Shown here: piece after piece, positions 1,456 through 50,931 of the stretch
Position numbering within the stretch: position 1 is the stretch's first letter
How the letters are laid out: each line of letters begins with the position of its first letter
NCBI GenBank assembly: GCA_964414145.1
Contig: CAYPVH010000001.1
Coordinates: forward strand, 220,851 to 284,850
Direction of reading: 5' to 3'
DNA: 64,000 bases
Source of the DNA: an uncultured Gammaproteobacteria bacterium
Lineage (GTDB): Bacteria; Patescibacteriota; Microgenomatia; UBA1406
Translations under genes and position numbers: made by a program
Notes under the pieces: model-generated
What the model was told of the DNA's origin: nothing
Database searches by the model: none
What the model saw: the letters and a program-made list of their open reading frames with translations, nothing else

Positions 1456-1837
1456 TGGAGATGCCCGGAGTTGAACCGGGGTACACAAAAAGTAAGCCCT
1501 AAAGATTTTATAGCAAGTTTAGTTCAACAATAAAGTTAAACAGTTTTAAGACCGTTTGTGTTTCGGCGCCCGTAGGTAGGTCTTTTCCCGGTTTGCCAAA
1601 GCCGAAAGGTTTGCACTAAATACAGCTATCGGCGTCTGCTGTACTTAATGTCCCGCCAAGCGGGAAAAGCTGTTTACGCAGTTGCATAAGCAAAACGGTT
1701 AGCAAAAGCTCCCGCTTGCATAGCTTCTAGGTATTCAGCTTCTTCTGCGTCATTATCTGCAGTTGTTTTTCCTGTTTTACGGACAAGTCCGACCTGCAAT
1801 CTTTAAAGCACAATTTGTGGCAAAGCCCGTCATCCCC
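1454..1837 (-). ncRNA. ssrA: tmRNA (SsrA), one-piece
   Basis: The 5' end GGGGATG pairs with CATCTCC at the 3' end, giving a G3:U70 pair. The T-arm is CCCGG-TTCAACT-CCGGG, followed by discriminator A and CC. An internal reading frame ends …GCT AAC CGT TTT GCT TAT GCA ACT GCG TAA (…ANRFAYATA*). The gene is immediately downstream of smpB. Confidence 0.85.
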
Positions 1838-22535: not shown

Positions 22536-22546
22536 TGTTTTCTCTG

Positions 22547-22651
22547 AGCGGTGGACGAGACTTCCCAGAACATTCTGTTCTGGACCAGTCCCGAACTTAT
22601 AGTTCGGGGGAACTCGTGACCTGTCGCCTAGGGCGACCATTCTACCCAACT
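22547..22651 (-). pseudogene. 5'-truncated, diverged tRNA copy (tRNA-Gly-related) with a 46-nt insertion in the T-loop
   Basis: It aligns to tRNA-Gly from the D-loop to the 3' end (…AAGTTGGGTAGAATGGTCGCCCTAGGCGACAGGTCACGAGTTC[46 nt]AAGTCTCGTCCACCGCT). The last 19 nt are identical to tRNA-Gly. No 5' acceptor strand is present. Confidence 0.7.
22564..22609 (-). mobile_element. 46-nt palindromic mini-element (two hairpins, termini CCCCGAAC…GTTCTGGG) interrupting the T-loop of the tRNA copy
   Basis: The minus strand reads CCCCGAACTATAAGTTCGGGACTGGTCCAGAACAGAATGTTCTGGG, lying between TTC and AAGT of a TTCAAGT T-loop. Confidence 0.55.
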
Positions 22652-22653
22652 TG

Positions 22654-22726
<73 letters not shown>

Positions 22727-39677: not shown

Positions 39678-39971
39678 CTATTCTACGGAATATGCGTTCT
39701 GGACTAGAGATTTTAGACTTTCTTTAAGCATTATTCTCAAAGTCTTCTTACCGCAAGTGGTTTTGAAGTACTTTTCTCTTCTTGTTGCATCATGTTTTGA
39801 ATAGAAGAATTCACAAAACAGTAGTGTGAACGGTCTTCGAAAAGAAGTAGCCAAAGAGTGACCGTTGACATGGGCAGTTAATCTGTTGTGAAGATTTGTT
39901 GTATAGCCAATATAGAAACACTTATCCTTTAAACTATACAATACGTAAACACAATACTGGAGTTTCTTCAC
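39678..39971 (-). CDS. GIY-YIG nuclease family protein (small, URI-domain only), copy 2
   Basis: Motif YCVYVLYSLKDKCFYIGYTTNLHNRLTAH…E. The track start (TTG at 40004) lies inside a hairpin, so the in-frame GTG at 39971 is preferred. TATAAT lies 9 nt upstream and there is no SD. Confidence 0.7.
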   Translation of the reverse strand: MKKLQYCVYVLYSLKDKCFYIGYTTNLHNRLTAHVNGHSLATSFRRPFTLLFCEFFYSKHDATRREKYFKTTCGKKTLRIMLKESLKSLVQNAYSVE

Positions 39972-39993
39972 AATACTATAATTATAGACGTTT

Positions 39994-40078
39994 TTGACTC
40001 TCAAGAGTCAAGTAGTGTAGTGAAGTAGAACAGCAGTTCGCTTCACTACCATGAAGTCAACTGCGTTGTACTTCATGG
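39994..40078 (-). repeat. Three consecutive hairpins filling the tRNA-Tyr to GIY-YIG spacer
   Basis: The minus strand reads CCATGAAGT-N12-ACTTCATGG (40049-40078, starting with the tRNA CCA), then TAGTGAAG-N15-CTTCACTA (40018-40048), then TTGACTC-TTGA-GAGTCAA (39994-40011). Confidence 0.75.
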
Positions 40079-40161
40079 TCCAGGGGGATGGATTCGAACC
40101 ATCGAAGACTAATGTCAGCAGTTTTACAGACTGCTCCGTTTGGCCACTTCGGTACCCCTGG
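40076..40161 (-). tRNA. tRNA-Tyr (anticodon GUA), class II long variable arm, CCA encoded
   Basis: CCAGGGG-TA-CCG…CGG-A-GCAGT-CTGTAAA-ACTGC-(14-nt variable arm)-GATGG-TTCGAAT-CCATC-CCCCTGG-A-CCA. Confidence 0.9.
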
Positions 40162-40174
40162 GATGTGGGTTTTA

Positions 40175-40292
40175 TCCCAGAAGTAGCTTTTTCGCTACTG
40201 CGAAATTAGCACTTCGGGATCCCGTATTTCTACGCCAAATTCTATCATAAATTAAGGGATTTTATCAAAAATTTGGCTAGAAAGTACTGGGA
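40175..40292. mobile_element. About 118-nt structured mini-element bounded by TCCCAG…CTGGGA, between tRNA-Tyr and its decayed 5'-half copy
   Basis: The plus strand starts TCCCAGAAGTAGC…(inner hairpin TTTCGC-TACT-GCGAAA)…GCACTTCGGGATCCCG (40175-40224). A second hairpin GCCAAATT-N-AATTTGGC follows. The element ends AAGTACTGGGA at 40292. Confidence 0.5.
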
Positions 40293-40327
40293 CAGACCCG
40301 TGCGTTAGGCCACTCCGCCACCCCTGG
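40293..40327 (-). pseudogene. Diverged copy of tRNA-Tyr nucleotides 1-34 (5' half only)
   Basis: The minus strand reads CCAGGGG-TG-GCG-GAGTGGCCTAA-CGC-A-CGGGT-CTG and is then joined to TCCCAG. The D-stem differs from the intact gene by compensatory changes (GCG/CGC versus CCG/CGG). There is no 3' half. Confidence 0.7.
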
Positions 40328-40597: not shown

Positions 40598-40945
40598 ATG
40601 TATTCTTTTGAAAAACTTAAGGTTTGGCAAAAGTCTTTAGAGTTAATCAAAGACATATATCGTACGTGTGAAGAATTGCCAAAACAAGAAAGAACAAATT
40701 TAATAGACCAGATAAAAAGAGCGGCAACATCAATAAATTTAAATATTGCCGAAGGCGGTGGGGCAGAAAACAAGAAAGAAAATAAAAGATTTTTATATAT
40801 GGCAAGAAAATCTCTTTATGAAGTAGTAGCAATATTGTTAATTATTGAAAGGCTATACAAAATAGATATAACTAATCAAAGAAAGCAAGTTGATGAAGTT
40901 GGTAAAATGCTTAACGGGTTAATAAAGAGTTATAGTATAAGTTGA
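40598..40945 (+). CDS. Four-helix-bundle protein of the 23S rRNA intervening-sequence (IVS) / Avd-like family
   Basis: Carries FEKLKVWQKSLELIKDIY…LIDQIKRAATSINLNIAEG…RFLYMARKSLYEV, the signature of the S23-ribosomal/IVS-protein family. Confidence 0.8.
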   Translation: MYSFEKLKVWQKSLELIKDIYRTCEELPKQERTNLIDQIKRAATSINLNIAEGGGAENKKENKRFLYMARKSLYEVVAILLIIERLYKIDITNQRKQVDEVGKMLNGLIKSYSIS

Positions 40946-40988
40946 TAACTAGCTAATATTTACTAATAACTGAGAACTGAATGACTAA

Positions 40989-41108
40989 TTTTGACTGACA
41001 ACTGACAACTGAGAACCGACAACAGACAAATTTTGACTGACAACTGACAACTGAGAACCGACAACAGACAAATGTTGACTGACAACTGACAACTGAGAAC
41101 CGACAACT
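40989..41108 (+). repeat. 42-nt tandem repeat, about 2.9 copies, rich in CTGACAAC
   Basis: The unit TTTTGACTGACAACTGACAACTGAGAACCGACAACAGACAAA recurs with a period of 42 (unit starts 40989, 41031, 41073). The array runs up to 5 nt before tRNA-Ser(UGA). Confidence 0.85.
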
Positions 41109-41113
41109 AAATT

Positions 41114-41200
41114 GGAGAGGTGGCAGAGCGGCCGATTGCGCACGCCTTGAGAGCGTGTTTCGTCGTAAGGCGAACGTGGGTTCGAATCCCACCCTCTCCG
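41114..41200 (+). tRNA. tRNA-Ser (anticodon UGA), class II
   Basis: GGAGAGG…CACGC-CTTGAGA-GCGTG-(long variable arm)-GTGGG-TTCGAAT-CCCAC-CCTCTCC-G. Confidence 0.9.
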
Positions 41201-41320
41201 CACTGATATTTCTTAGCGAGTAATCGAGCTTAGAAACAACAGTGCCCGCCAGTAAATGAGAGAAAAAGCCGTGTGTGCTTGTCCTGAGTATCTCGAAGGA
41301 AATATAACCCCATAAGACTT

Positions 41321-41368
41321 GTTCACGAATATGGCGGGCGTATTTACAAGCTACGGCGAGACAAAGTC
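41321..41368 (+). repeat. 48-nt module homologous (45/48) to the sequence immediately 3' of GIY-YIG copy 3
   Basis: GTTCACGAATATGGCGGGCGTATTTACAAGCTACGGCGAGACAAAGTC matches the reverse complement of 48326-48373. No ORF lies between it and tRNA-Ser(UGA). Confidence 0.8.
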
Positions 41369-41541
41369 AGCCGGACAAAAGCGTATGTGGGATTTATATT
41401 TACTGAATCAAAAAAAAGCAAAGTTGTAGAATTATTCCCACTATACATCAGTATGGGTTAAGTGATATAATTTACCTTTCTCTTCTACACTTAAGTCCCT
41501 GTGGTTAGTGCAAGAGATAATATTATTTGAAAACTAAAAAA

Positions 41542-48129: not shown

Positions 48130-48343
48130 CCTAGTTATTCTGAATTGTACTAAATTAGATTTTTTTGTCAAATTAATTTTACTCAAAATATTCCTATTCT
48201 TATTATTGTAGGTATCGTTATTGACCAGTTAAGAACGAATTTTGTTTACGCTCTTAATCGGTAGACTTTGTCTCGCCGTAGCCGAGCTTCAGCGAGGCGA
48301 ACCCTGCTTTCGCTTTTATCAGGCGGACTTTGTCTCGCCGTAG

Positions 48344-48681
48344 ATTGTAAATTCGCCCGCCGTATTCGTGAACTTAGTATTTGAAAAAATGTTTCTTCAT
48401 AAACGCCCTACCAGAACCAGACTTTAAATATTTTTCAAATTTAAAAGCTGTAATTTCTTTATCAAATGCAAAGTATAGTTTCAGAGCTACTGGTGTTCTA
48501 TTTTTGGTTGCCTCAATGTAATTACTGTTATGCATTTGTAATCTGTCTTTTAGGTTATTTGTACATCCAATATATGTTCTGTTGTCATTACAAATAAGAA
48601 CATAAACGTAGTACATGGAATAATTGTAGCGGATTTGTATCGCTAAGCCTCAATAAATTTTGACTTTTTTTAGACAAAATT
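48344..48681 (-). mobile_element. 338-nt cassette carrying GIY-YIG copy 3, inserted in the loop of a repeat-unit hairpin
   Basis: Its boundaries are defined by where unit 2 departs from units 1 and 3 (after TTCGCCTC and before CTACGGCGAGAC). It contains a 5' hairpin GCCTCAAT…ATTGAGGC, a TACAAT box, the ORF and a 30-nt 3' tail. Confidence 0.55.
48374..48616 (-). CDS. GIY-YIG nuclease family protein (small, URI-domain only), copy 3
   Basis: MYYVYVLICNDNRTYIGCTNNLKDRLQMHN…E. TACAAT lies 6 nt before the ATG and there is no SD. Confidence 0.7.
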   Translation of the reverse strand: MYYVYVLICNDNRTYIGCTNNLKDRLQMHNSNYIEATKNRTPVALKLYFAFDKEITAFKFEKYLKSGSGRAFMKKHFFKY

Positions 48682-48753
48682 GAGGCGAATCCCGCTTTCG
48701 CTTTTATCAGGCGGACTTTGTCTCGCCGTAGCCGAGCTTCAGCGAGGCGAAGG

Positions 48754-48839
48754 CGGAGGAGGTGGGATTTGAACCCACGTGAGCCAAAAGGCTCGCAGGT
48801 TTAGCAAACCTGTGCAATGGACCACTATGCGACTCCTCC
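48754..48839 (-). tRNA. tRNA-Ser (anticodon GCU), class II
   Basis: GGAGGAG-TC-GCA…TGC-A-CAGGT-TTGCTAA-ACCTG-(17-nt variable arm)-GTGGG-TTCAAAT-CCCAC-CTCCTCC-G, followed by CC. Confidence 0.9.
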
Positions 48840-48856
48840 AATGAACCTGCCTTTTA

Positions 48857-48862
48857 ATTATA
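48857..48862 (-). promoter_or_regulatory. -10 box (TATAAT) for tRNA-Ser(GCU), duplicated at 49068-49073
   Basis: On the minus strand TATAAT is separated from tRNA nucleotide 1 by 17 nt. The same hexamer sits in the 85-nt duplicate. Confidence 0.4.
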
Positions 48863-48889
48863 ACCCAAAGCCCCTTTCGGTTTAGTCCC

Positions 48890-48979
48890 GAAAAACTTTC
48901 TCAACGGAACGTTGAGATTAGTTTTCGGGATCCCGAAGTACTAAACCCGATGAGTTTCATCGGGAAGTTACTTCTGGGA
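48890..48979 (-). mobile_element. 90-nt structured spacer or mini-element between the two copies of the tRNA-Ser 5' region
   Basis: The minus strand reads TCCCAGAAGTAAC-(hairpin CCCGATGAAACTCATCGGG)-TTTAGTACTTCGGGATCCCG, then the hairpin GAAAAC-TAATCTCAACG-TTC-CGTTGAGAAA-GTTTTTC. Its ends resemble those of the tRNA-Tyr and tRNA-Gly elements. Confidence 0.55.
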
Positions 48980-49100
48980 CAAACCTGTGCAATGGACCAC
49001 TACCTGCCCGCATTGCTATGCAAAGCGTTGCAGGCGGGTGCGACTCCTCCAATGAACCTGCCTTTTAATTATAACCCAAAGCCCCTTTCGGTTTAGTCCC
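48980..49100 (-). pseudogene. Duplicate of the promoter plus tRNA-Ser(GCU) nucleotides 1-34, with a 36-nt insertion in the D-loop
   Basis: Identical over 85/85 nt to 48805-48889 apart from the insertion at 49003-49038 (plus strand cctgcccgcattgctatgcaaagcgttgcaggcggg). It ends after G34 and joins TCCCAG. Confidence 0.75.
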
Positions 49101-49189
49101 TTATAACTTTCTTAGCACAGATATTATACTAAATGGAATAGTCACACTTAAGTGAAAATTAACTTAATTGTATTCCGTATAATAAGTTT

Positions 49190-49981
49190 ATGCAGAAATA
49201 TTGGCAGATATTTAAAACATCATTAAAACAGTATCTGGTTTACAGACTAAGTTTTGTACTTTGGCGCTTGCGTTTGGTTTTAAGTTTATTGCTTGTTTAT
49301 TTTCTCTGGTCTTCCGCTTTTACTGGAAGGCAGCAAGTATTTTCTTACAGTTTAGCCCAAATGAGTAGTTATGTAATTTTAGTGCACTTGGCTGGTGATA
49401 TTGTTTTCTCTAGTCGTGTTGGTGATCTGGCCGGTTATATACGCGACGGTACTATCATGAACTATTTACTTAAGCCATTTTCAATTTTTCATACTATGTT
49501 TGGAAGAGAAATTGTCGACAAGATTATTAACATCTGTTTTTCTGTTATTGAAATATTAATTCTTGTTTGGTTGTTAAAACCCAGTTTGGTTATCCAACTA
49601 AATCCGTTAGTATACGCCCTAATGTTTGGCGCGATATTATTAGGAGTGATTATTTCATATTTTATCTTTTTCTCTTTGTCTTCTATTGCTTTTTGGACAC
49701 CAGAAGTTTGGGCGCCTCGCTTTGTTTTTTTTGTGTTAATTTCCGGTTTGGCTGGCGGCTATTACCCACTAGATATTTTCCCCAAAACAGTCTATTATGC
49801 ACTGCTGTTTACACCTTTCCCTTATTTGGTATATTTACCGGCTAAGATATATATCGAAGGTGTTAGTTTGTCGCTTTTTCCCCTATTTACCGGAGCCTTA
49901 TTTTGGGCAATTTTATCAATTATAGTAGCTAAAGCCATTTGGAGAAAAGGTTTAGCCGAGTATAGTTTTTTTGGCAAATGA
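49190..49981 (+). CDS. ABC-2-type transporter permease
   Basis: 263 aa with 6 TM helices. It is translationally coupled (ATGA overlap) to a similar permease. Confidence 0.55.
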   Translation: MQKYWQIFKTSLKQYLVYRLSFVLWRLRLVLSLLLVYFLWSSAFTGRQQVFSYSLAQMSSYVILVHLAGDIVFSSRVGDLAGYIRDGTIMNYLLKPFSIFHTMFGREIVDKIINICFSVIEILILVWLLKPSLVIQLNPLVYALMFGAILLGVIISYFIFFSLSSIAFWTPEVWAPRFVFFVLISGLAGGYYPLDIFPKTVYYALLFTPFPYLVYLPAKIYIEGVSLSLFPLFTGALFWAILSIIVAKAIWRKGLAEYSFFGK

Positions 49982-50760
49982 AAAAAAACTTAAAAATTTT
50001 CTTTTTATTAAGTTTGTTTAGTATTAAAAGCTCGTTTCAACATAAAAGCGGTATTGTTTTCTTTTTGTTTGGAAAAATATTGCGATTTTTAATGTTTTTT
50101 CTGTTTGTTTATTACCTACTGTTAAATACTAAGCTTTTGGTTGGTTATAATTTGCCACAAACAATTGTATTTTTTTTAACATTCAACCTAATAGATACCT
50201 TAGCCCAGCTTCTTTTTAGGGAAGTGTATCGTTTTCGATCATTGGTTGTTTCGGGCGACTTGGATACAATACTGGTCAAGCCTTATAATTCCTTATTAAG
50301 AGTTTTACTCGGGGGAATAGATATTCTTGATTTGTTTCTGGTATTACCCTACGCTTTGCTGGTTACTTATTTTATTCTTCAAATTCCAATGCTTTCGGCC
50401 TTCTCCTTGTTTTTGTATTTAATCTTACTTATTAACGCCTTGTTTATTGCCGCCGGGCTGCACATTTTGGTACTTGCCTTGGGCATATTAACAACAGAAG
50501 TTGATCACACCGTTATGATTTACAGAGACTTAACCAAAATGGCAGCAATGCCGGTTGATATATATATAGAGCCTATTCGTAGTATAATTACATTTATTGT
50601 ACCCATTGGAATTATGATGACTTTTCCGGTTAAGGCACTGCTGGGGTTGTTAAATACACAATTTATATTGATTAGTTTGGGTTTTGGCTTAGTGTCAATG
50701 ATAGTCGGATTATTTTTTTGGAAAAAAGCTTTGGCAAAATATCAGAGCTGGGGAAGCTAA
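49978..50760 (+). CDS. ABC-2-type transporter permease (second subunit)
   Basis: 260 aa with 6 TM helices. It is paired with 49190-49981. Confidence 0.55.
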   Translation: MKKNLKIFFLLSLFSIKSSFQHKSGIVFFLFGKILRFLMFFLFVYYLLLNTKLLVGYNLPQTIVFFLTFNLIDTLAQLLFREVYRFRSLVVSGDLDTILVKPYNSLLRVLLGGIDILDLFLVLPYALLVTYFILQIPMLSAFSLFLYLILLINALFIAAGLHILVLALGILTTEVDHTVMIYRDLTKMAAMPVDIYIEPIRSIITFIVPIGIMMTFPVKALLGLLNTQFILISLGFGLVSMIVGLFFWKKALAKYQSWGS

Positions 50761-50843
50761 TAATAGTTTAAAATTTAAAGTTTATAGTTAAAAAATCAGA
50801 TTAAAAATTAATTCAGAGATAAGAATTAAAAATAAAAAAACTT

Positions 50844-50889
50844 GTCATCCTGAGCGAGTCCGCCTGAGGCGGACGAGTCGAAGGATCTC
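50844..50889 (+). repeat. REP-like hairpin element GTCATCCTGAGCGAG-TCCGCC-TGA-GGCGGA-CGAGTCGAAGGATCTC
   Basis: A 7-bp stem GTCCGCC/GGCGGAC sits inside TCCTGAG…TCGAAGGA flanks. A shorter TCCTGAG…TCGAAGGA version occurs at 41282-41300. Confidence 0.6.
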
Positions 50890-50931
50890 AAATAAGTTAA
50901 AATTTATCTATTAAAATAAAATTAATAAAGA

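Follow-up and report, generated by a model that had tools for sequence, protein, structure and literature searches.

A two-hairpin DNA element in the anticodon loop of a redundant tRNA-Ser(GCU) copy in a Patescibacteria genome

tRNA genes are classic landing sites of kilobase-scale integrative elements. In the 64-kb stretch of contig CAYPVH010000001.1 analyzed here, referred to as the window, a functional tRNA-Ser(GCU) gene is preceded by an exact copy of its own promoter, leader and 5' half, which raises the question of how half a tRNA gene came to lie upstream of the whole one. The host genome is AT-rich (35% GC) and belongs to the Candidate Phyla Radiation, and one of the flanking proteins has its closest named relative in a metagenome-assembled Candidatus Roizmanbacteria genome. 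What is seen as a duplicated tRNA-Ser 5' half remains from a redundant copy of the gene that was split in the anticodon loop by a two-hairpin DNA element, here called E_Ser. For the origin of this arrangement the preferred reading, to which we assign a probability of roughly 55%, is that E_Ser belongs to a small family of palindromic insertion elements in tRNA-gene loops, each accompanied by a partial duplication that preserves an intact tRNA, and that the 85-nt direct repeat at the tRNA-Ser locus results from a recent homology-driven amplification or re-integration. The coordinates of all features are collected in Table 1.

Table 1. Features of the element-bearing tRNA loci (window coordinates, except for L126)
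Feature	Position	Strand	Remarks
Intact tRNA-Ser(GCU), functional copy	48752-48839	minus	ARAGORN; Rfam tRNA model 58.1 bits, E = 3e-11
Rest of intact tRNA-Ser after proximal repeat	48752-48804	minus	
Proximal repeat X2	48805-48889	minus	GGGA (last 4 nt of E_Ser) + 35-41 remnant + 39-nt leader with -10 box + tRNA nt 1-34
Element E_Ser, 94 nt	48886-48979	minus	inserted between tRNA nt 34 and 35
E_Ser modules, two, back-to-back	48931-48979 and 48886-48930	minus	hairpins, bounded TCCC...GGGA
90-nt spacer between the 85-nt copies	48890-48979	minus	two strong hairpins
Distal copy, tRNA nt 13-34, ends at wobble base G34	48980-49002	minus	23/23 identical to 48805-48827
36-nt insertion in distal copy	49003-49038	minus	GC-rich imperfect palindrome between tRNA nt 12 and 13
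Distal copy, first part	49039-49100	minus	GGGA + 35-41 remnant + leader with -10 box + tRNA nt 1-12; 62/62 identical to 48828-48889
TATAAT -10 boxes	48857-48862 (intact gene), 49068-49073 (distal twin)	minus	both 17 nt upstream of tRNA +1
CTAAACC = tRNA-Ser positions 35-41	48879-48885	minus	directly 3' of E_Ser; second copy at 49090-49096, upstream of distal leader
AGAAAGTTATAAGGGA	49097-49112	minus	13/16 identical to last 16 nt of E_Ser (AGAAAGTTTTTCGGGA, 48886-48901)
Intact tRNA-Tyr(GUA)	40076-40161	minus	
TAAAACCCA = tRNA-Tyr positions 35-43	40166-40174	minus	after E_Tyr; followed by CATC, then intact tRNA-Tyr
Element E_Tyr, 118 nt	40175-40292	minus	at 34|35 of partial tRNA-Tyr; starts TCCCAG, ends CTGGGA
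E_Tyr hairpin modules	40220-40292 and 40175-40219	minus	joined at GGGATCCCGAAG
Partial tRNA-Tyr 5' half, 35 nt	40293-40327	minus	nt 1-34, ends at G34; upstream of intact tRNA-Tyr
Intact tRNA-Gly(GCC)	22653-22726	minus	tRNA-Gly-like partial copy follows directly
tRNA-Gly-like copy	22610-22652 + 22546-22563	minus	5'-truncated (lacks about the first 12 nt), diverged
Element E_Gly, 46 nt	22564-22609	minus	two short hairpins, between T-loop nt 56 and 57 of tRNA-Gly-like copy
tRNA-Tyr locus of L126	5' half 1363-1397; modules 1398-1445 and 1446-1495; TAAAACTGC 1496-1504; intact gene 1519-1603		14-nt spacer between TAAAACTGC and intact gene
GIY-YIG ORF downstream of tRNA-Tyr	39678-40004	minus	close homologues in many Patescibacteria
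GIY-YIG ORF downstream of tRNA-Ser(GCU)	48374-48616	minus	

The split copy of tRNA-Ser(GCU)

A string-for-string comparison of the two 85-nt segments gave 100% identity, with 48805-48889 equal to 49039-49100 joined to 48980-49002, as the first-pass annotation had claimed. The first part of the distal copy is made up of 50 nt of upstream sequence, including the TATAAT box, plus tRNA nucleotides 1-12. The 36-nt insertion that divides the distal copy was also found as first described; it is unique in the window, sits at the 5' edge of the D-loop of the distal copy and folds as DNA with -11.4 kcal/mol (z = -2.7). No further copy of this 36-mer or of the 90-nt spacer occurs in the window with up to 3 mismatches allowed. 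With such an insertion in its D-arm, the distal copy is clearly dispensable. In relatives a TATAAT box is conserved 11-20 nt upstream of the same tRNA-Ser.

Directly after the wobble base G34 the distal copy runs into TCCCAG, and the same junction, already reported for this locus, is present at tRNA-Tyr both in the window and in a Patescibacteria contig (L126, European Nucleotide Archive ERZ27250570). The inserted sequence had been described as a 90-nt spacer of two strong hairpins. Its strong fold stands (-39.2 kcal/mol as RNA, z = -6.7, with 0/200 shuffles as stable), but the element proper comprises 94 nt, the last 4 of which lie inside the 85-nt repeat. The two modules of E_Ser have DNA fold z-scores of -5.2 and -6.5, and the stem at 48899-48917 is terminator-like on both strands. 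The arms of the second hairpin (48886-48906 and 48910-48930) are 81% complementary, one of them matching the beginning of the repeat in inverted orientation.

Without the 36-nt and 94-nt insertions, the sequence of the distal copy corresponds to tRNA positions 1-41, agrees with the intact gene at 41/41 of them, and then passes into the intact gene's leader. Insertion at 34|35 has duplicated no target base and removed none. The presence of tRNA sequence on both sides of E_Ser therefore indicates insertion into a tRNA copy that was itself truncated after nucleotide 41. This modifies the earlier proposal that an element carrying its own promoter and tRNA 5' half had entered the anticodon loop. 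The end of the element does abut G34 and the breakpoint recurs at other loci, but tRNA nucleotides 35-41 follow E_Ser, and because the 85-nt repeat holds the last 4 nt of the element together with the 35-41 remnant, it represents a re-duplication of an already rearranged unit and not a single primary integration. The similarity extends 12 nt beyond the repeat (48890-48901 compared with 49101-49112), with 3 clustered mismatches. A second CTAAACC and 16 nt resembling the end of the element are located upstream of the distal leader, indicating that the structure was built in more than one round, and these 16 nt (AGAAAGTTATAAGGGA) may have been left by an earlier copy of the element.

To exclude an artificial duplication, a concern raised at the outset, contigs from five Joint Genome Institute (JGI) samples were compared with the window, and four of these span both copies. 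The contigs from 3300076254 (L001/L017), 3300076258 (L020), and 3300076594 (L021) match exactly across both copies, and the contig from 3300076255 (L018) also spans both, its sole difference from the window being one single-nucleotide polymorphism (SNP) at 49731. The contig from 3300076261 (L019) matches exactly and ends inside the distal copy at 49052. The 85-nt repeat is presumably also shorter than a typical short read. The layout is shared by all five sample contigs, and this concordance, including one assembly with a SNP elsewhere, makes an assembly artefact very unlikely. A further contig (L002, from the Logan assembly of SRR12447092, k = 31) corresponds to 49001-50839 of the window; its start lies 2 nt past the 36-nt insert, and it is unbroken across the 62-nt repeat.

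Related elements at tRNA-Tyr, at tRNA-Gly and in other genomes

Two additional cases were located in the window, one at tRNA-Tyr(GUA) by a scan for GC-rich islands and one at tRNA-Gly(GCC) by BLAST of each tRNA against the window. The elements end in TCCC(A)G...C(T)GGGA, range in length from 46 to 118 nt and have hairpin z-scores of -4.5 to -7.7. All three elements of the window lie between the 3rd and 4th nucleotide of a 7-nt loop, either the anticodon or the T-loop, as read on the tRNA sense strand. Each member interrupts a partial tRNA copy with an intact one directly next to it, and tRNA function is thereby preserved. After removal of the elements the partial copies are collinear with their intact neighbors over nucleotides 1-41 for Ser, approximately 1-41 for Tyr and approximately 13-74 for Gly, with alignment scores of 79.5, 52, and 72.5, respectively, compared with shuffle maxima of 27.5, 28, and 35. 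Within the 64-kb window the motifs shared by the elements are confined to these tRNA loci; GGGATCCCGAA occurs at the Ser and Tyr loci only, and TCCCAGWASTW has 3 matches compared with 0.16 expected.

At tRNA-Tyr the sequence following the element, TAAAACCCA, pairs with the anticodon stem of the partial 5' half. One loop of E_Tyr contains a promoter-like TTGATA-18-TAGAAT (score 10/12, with TG). The two tRNA-Tyr 5' halves of the window differ at 8/35 positions. The partial copy is of the type usual in the lineage, as its first 20 nt match L129, whereas the intact tRNA-Tyr departs from that type by compensatory differences in its D-stem and anticodon stem. The presence of an atypical intact gene beside a lineage-type partial copy suggests a contribution of foreign DNA to the tRNA-Tyr event at least. 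The locus in L126 is the mirror of this, with a typical intact gene and an atypical partial copy. At tRNA-Gly, E_Gly is followed by an exact 18-nt copy of tRNA-Gly positions 57-74. The anticodon arm (GGTCGCCCTAGGCGAC) of the tRNA-Gly-like copy at 22610-22652 is very unlike that of the intact tRNA-Gly(GCC), and in the T-arm and at the 3' end the two agree nearly or completely. The copy may come from a different isoacceptor or from foreign DNA.

L126 shares the tRNA-Tyr architecture of the window. The upstream regions of the two loci show 74% column identity, and the junctions GTCTG|TCCYAG and CTGGGA|TAAAAC are conserved. One module, TCCCGWAGTRCTAA...AAGYTACTWCTGGGA, can be aligned across three copies, namely L126, the window tRNA-Tyr, and the reverse complement of the window tRNA-Ser module at 48931-48979. 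The outer stem of this module is conserved with 2 compensatory pairs, and the inner hairpin is of different sequence in the copies while still forming a hairpin. Since the tRNA-Ser module aligns as its reverse complement, E_Ser is opposite in orientation to E_Tyr at the same 34|35 bond. By eye, L126 has no -10-like box between its partial and intact tRNA-Tyr, and the upstream promoter therefore probably drives the tRNA.

In related genomes, the 34|35 junction recurs at tRNA-Tyr of L126, and the tRNA-Ser relatives carry a single plain gene. Such a single tRNA-Ser(GCU) adjoins the ABC-2 operon in L004, L007, L010, L011, and L013-L016, with no duplicate in any of them. These relatives were found through the ABC-2 permease, in which the closest are only 53-58% identical, and tRNA-Ser(GCU) occupies the syntenic slot as a single gene, with none in L012; at this distance they provide no close empty site. 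For tRNA-Tyr, L124 and L129 have the gene followed by the same cassette with a GIY-YIG gene as in the window, without a partial copy and without an element. As the relatives that lack the element also lack the partial copy, none of them represents a clean empty site. The gene order pilin, DNA ligase, exo/endonuclease, tRNA-Ser slot, ABC-2 operon and histidyl-tRNA synthetase (HisRS) is kept in L011, and in L013 as far as the locus reaches; L012 shares only the ABC-2-to-HisRS side of the neighborhood. A look-up of the exo/endo/phosphatase protein gave no additional arrangement. The strand of tRNA-Ser(GCU) differs among the relatives, with L004, L007, L010, and L013 on one side and L011, L014-L016, and the window on the other, and L011 and L013 have a common terminator-like hairpin on opposite sides of the tRNA-Ser gene. 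The strand switch together with the position of this hairpin indicates that tRNA-Ser was inverted in place, along with its promoter, during evolution.

Origin of the split copies

The locus combines a functional tRNA-Ser(GCU) with an upstream redundant copy consisting of promoter, leader and nucleotides 1-41. Under the preferred reading, the ancestral arrangement would have been similar to that at tRNA-Tyr, with direct repeats of the tRNA 5' part already on both sides of the element. The unit made up of the element, nucleotides 35-41, the leader, and nucleotides 1-34 would then have been amplified or re-integrated through ordinary homologous recombination, with the repeated tRNA 5' parts as partners. 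An X-E-X layout (repeat, element, repeat) could result from unequal exchange, or from a 175-nt circle that popped out and re-entered in Campbell fashion, and either route would explain the identity across a leader that is not conserved. The upstream copy, by then non-functional, would later have taken the 36-nt hairpin insertion. The duplicated tRNA segments may further act as homology arms that move the unit between genomes via DNA uptake. The 100% identity over a leader that is not conserved in relatives argues for a local, recent, homology-based origin rather than an imported foreign attachment site (attP).

Several observations weigh against this account. Only four insertions in two genomes are at hand, and since both tRNA-Tyr remnants end at nucleotide 43, these two cases may go back to one event. 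No empty-versus-filled polymorphism was found within one population. With 64 kb of this genome available, neither an autonomous parent element nor a transposase came to light, and scans of viral collections and phage BLAST also gave none. The viral-collection scan for TTCGGGATCCCGAA gave approximately 100 chance matches, none with flanking motifs; a specific gapped pattern for the conserved module gave no matches, and phage BLAST of two of the loci gave none. There is no target-site duplication at the element borders, the 7-nt loops being intact and unduplicated after removal of the element. The reading does not account for the truncation of the partial copies a few nucleotides past the element (Ser after 41, Tyr after 43), nor would simple unequal crossing-over predict the 3 clustered mismatches at 49101-49104. 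The start of the L002 contig at 49001 could reflect a variant without the proximal repeat, or low coverage.

Miniature inverted-repeat transposable elements (MITEs), repetitive extragenic palindromic (REP) units with their bacterial interspersed mosaic elements (BIMEs), and palindromic elements derived from the IS200/IS605 insertion sequences are short and non-coding, have hairpin-forming inverted ends, and occur as several related copies in either orientation; IS200/IS605 derivatives leave no target duplication. The elements described here are likewise short and non-coding with terminal inverted repeats and occur in either orientation. They are present in 3 copies in 64 kb and 1 copy in L126. 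All three window cases lack a duplication at the element borders, in contrast to MITEs and in line with IS200/IS605 derivatives. A conserved IS200/IS605-like target of 4-5 nt was not seen, the left flanks being TTTG and TCTG versus GTTC at tRNA-Gly, or TTTA and ACTT if element-oriented. Unlike any of these palindromes, the copies all lie at one fixed tRNA-loop position and are coupled to a partial duplication of the target gene.

The closest documented type of rearrangement for the X-E-X layout is insertion with long target duplication, which involves no mobility genes, produces direct repeats of 30 to several hundred bp from a single-copy target and in the study concerned is mostly seen in naturally competent species (PMC2853133, Kobayashi group). 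The direct repeats found here are 85 bp (exact) at Ser, 35 bp at 77% identity at Tyr and 18 bp at Gly, with distant relatives, and not the same species, as the comparison genomes. The inserts in that study are kilobase restriction-modification units that are not aimed at tRNA loops, whereas the insert here is a 90-nt hairpin pair, and the repeat already includes a piece of a previous version of this structure.

Both the element family and the fixed position in the loop seem to be new. Full-text literature searching returned no title or abstract describing hairpin elements at a fixed tRNA-loop position coupled to partial tRNA duplication, which weakly suggests that the architecture is undescribed. 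A broader proposal is that of an undescribed class of Patescibacteria mobile elements, in which hairpin pairs of approximately 50 nt insert at 3|4 of 7-nt tRNA-gene loops in either orientation without target duplication and are kept through a partial duplication that regenerates the tRNA. The tRNA segments would serve as universal homology arms for DNA uptake and host recombination, and nicking by GIY-YIG nucleases might contribute. We regard this proposal as tentative and rather doubtful. The known logic of tRNA islands, by which a loop is hit and the tRNA is kept via a partial duplicate, is here seen at approximately 100-175 nt with no recombinase inside the unit, and the genomes carrying these elements are otherwise under strong reduction. 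If mobile, the element would be minimal selfish DNA, perhaps relying only on its hairpins and on tRNA-gene conservation, and there would be a testable link to the abundant uncharacterized GIY-YIG genes beside Patescibacteria tRNA genes. Loci of this kind yield tRNA-half pseudogenes and possibly tRNA-half transcripts, which annotation pipelines miss or mislabel.

Among the other explanations, the one that survives best is a miniature integrative element, although we consider it unlikely. Here a 175-nt unit (element, leader and tRNA nucleotides 1-34) would be moved by a tyrosine integrase acting in trans, in the manner of a cis-mobilizable element with att arms only. It would integrate at a crossover in the anticodon loop, where its own 5' part would regenerate the tRNA and displace the resident 5' fragment upstream. 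Islands of the Islander type likewise combine a functional intact tRNA with a cognate partial copy in direct orientation and have breakpoints in the anticodon or T-loop, the two classical sublocations of integrase crossover. The fragments lie as the Islander rules for configuration and orientation describe (PMC4383910), with the 5' fragment upstream for Ser and Tyr and a 3' fragment downstream for Gly, and the breakpoints fall at 34|35 (Ser), 34|35 (Tyr), and 56|57 (Gly). The tRNA-Gly case, with its 18-nt 3' fragment, resembles the classical form. The layout at tRNA-Ser had initially been presented as the mirror image of classical islands; the configuration is a legitimate one, but it is already known as a minority class, with a displaced 5' fragment in 159/3919 islands of the Islander survey (PMC4383910). 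In contrast to kilobase islands with an integrase, the intervals here are 90, 130, and 89 nt long and hold no integrase or other open reading frame (ORF), and the 14 flanking ORFs scanned with Pfam include no integrase or other recombinase, the remaining ORFs of the window lying outside that scan. Furthermore, the tRNA sequence continues on both sides of the hairpin element and is contiguous at its borders, with no repeated overlap segment, and the partial copy ends a few nucleotides past the element. The identity at tRNA-Ser also runs through 50 nt of non-conserved leader, and the tRNA-Tyr 5' halves are diverged.

A by-product of GIY-YIG nuclease activity is slightly less probable still. In this scenario the nuclease encoded downstream would nick or cut the stem-loops of tRNA genes, and imperfect repair would leave hairpin filler and a partial duplication; alternatively, the element would be a solo derivative of the hairpin array of the cassette. 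GIY-YIG ORFs are located 72-136 nt downstream of tRNA-Tyr and tRNA-Ser(GCU), the cassette itself looks mobile across genomes, and SegB of phage T4 is described as a GIY-YIG homing endonuclease in a tRNA gene cluster (PMC2330249). By reading, the arms of the element and hairpin 2 of the cassette share a GAAGTG...TACTTC core, but this similarity is short. No GIY-YIG gene is found near the tRNA-Gly case, and L124 and L129 have the cassette with neither element nor partial copy. The proteins have 80-108 amino acids, the ORF after tRNA-Ser(GCU) encoding 80 and that after tRNA-Tyr 108, and consist of the catalytic domain only; their proposed cleavage of such stem-loops is hypothetical.

Selection for an RNA function, which would be compatible with any origin, is improbable as the explanation for the retained unit. 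The upstream unit would be kept as a promoter and structured leader for the tRNA, or as a small RNA consisting of the tRNA 5' half and two hairpins. The tRNA-Tyr architecture is shared by two diverged genomes, in which hairpins and partial-copy D-stems alike show compensatory changes, and both the promoter-like site in E_Tyr and the terminator-like hairpin of E_Ser would fit such a role. On the other hand, the D-arm of the distal tRNA-Ser copy carries the 36-nt insertion, most relatives lack the whole structure, and palindromes can stay paired without selection on RNA.

A plain local tandem duplication, arising from slippage or a template switch during replication and leaving fold-back filler at the junction, with no element family involved, is very improbable. 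The repeats are exact and adjacent, the inverted copy of the repeat start in the second hairpin could be such filler, and insertions with long target duplication without mobility genes are documented (PMC2853133). However, homologous modules with the same ends are present at tRNA-Tyr in the window and in L126, similar hairpins of the TCCC...GGGA type occur at tRNA-Gly, and the placement of all elements at the same loop position contradicts local filler, so that slippage is largely refuted.

The two weakest candidates, hardly credible by now, are an assembly artefact, for which the metagenomic source could be held responsible but against which five independent sample assemblies agree, including the SNP variant, and a degenerate group I intron, which the small size of E_Ser (94 nt only) and a downstream "exon" of 7 nt speak against. 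Group I introns are common in tRNA anticodon loops of Patescibacteria, at positions 33/34 through 36/37, and 34/35 is a known position, for example in tRNA-Leu (PMC13011429); the elements occur in that phylum too and interrupt the same small set of phosphodiester bonds in this loop. They differ in that only nucleotides 35-41 or 35-43 follow the element, and the exons cannot be joined to a full tRNA. An Rfam search of the whole window with E up to 10 returned only tRNAs, transfer-messenger RNA (tmRNA) and chance matches, with no group I ribozyme core (Intron_gpI) or other intron and no weak tRNA fragments. A split or permuted functional tRNA and a spliceable intron were both rejected because the interrupted copies lack a 3' half.

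GIY-YIG cassettes and neighboring features

Small GIY-YIG genes with approximately three conserved hairpins ahead of them are located directly 3' of tRNA genes in several genomes, following tRNA-Tyr in L124, L126, and L129 and tRNA-Gln in L147. In L138 the cassette stands beside a decayed tRNA 3' end, and 41320-41394 of the window is a remnant of the 3' flank of the cassette downstream of tRNA-Ser(UGA). The GIY-YIG homologues reach up to 74-83% identity, compared with at most 58% for the neighboring ABC-2 permease. From this higher identity and its occurrence beside different tRNAs, the cassette looks horizontally mobile. The GIY-YIG ORF after tRNA-Ser(GCU) is flanked by GC-rich direct repeats at 48236-48343 and 48686-48751 (44-66 nt, 83-96% identical, in units of approximately 62 nt), and the cassette looks as if it was inserted into, or together with, a short tandem array starting at the 3' end of tRNA-Ser.

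A GC-rich hairpin (GTCCGCCTGAGGCGGAC inside ATCCTGAGCGAG...CGAAGGATC) is located at 50839-50891, with the second ABC-2 permease gene on one side and the ATPase gene on the other. A CCGCCTG core is common to this hairpin, the 36-nt insert, and the repeats flanking the GIY-YIG ORF. Directly upstream of tRNA-Ser(UGA) (41114-41201), units similar to GACAACTGAGAACCGACAACA are arrayed in tandem at 40983-41108 with a period of 21/42 nt. The ORF at 40598-40945 on the plus strand, between tRNA-Cys and tRNA-Ser(UGA), belongs to the 23S rRNA intervening-sequence protein family, is also weakly bAvd-like, and lies in the same tRNA-rich, rearranged neighborhood. At 1454-1837 on the minus strand, the window contains a tmRNA gene whose predicted tag peptide (ADNDAEEAEYLEAMQAGAFANRFAYATA) is unusually long.

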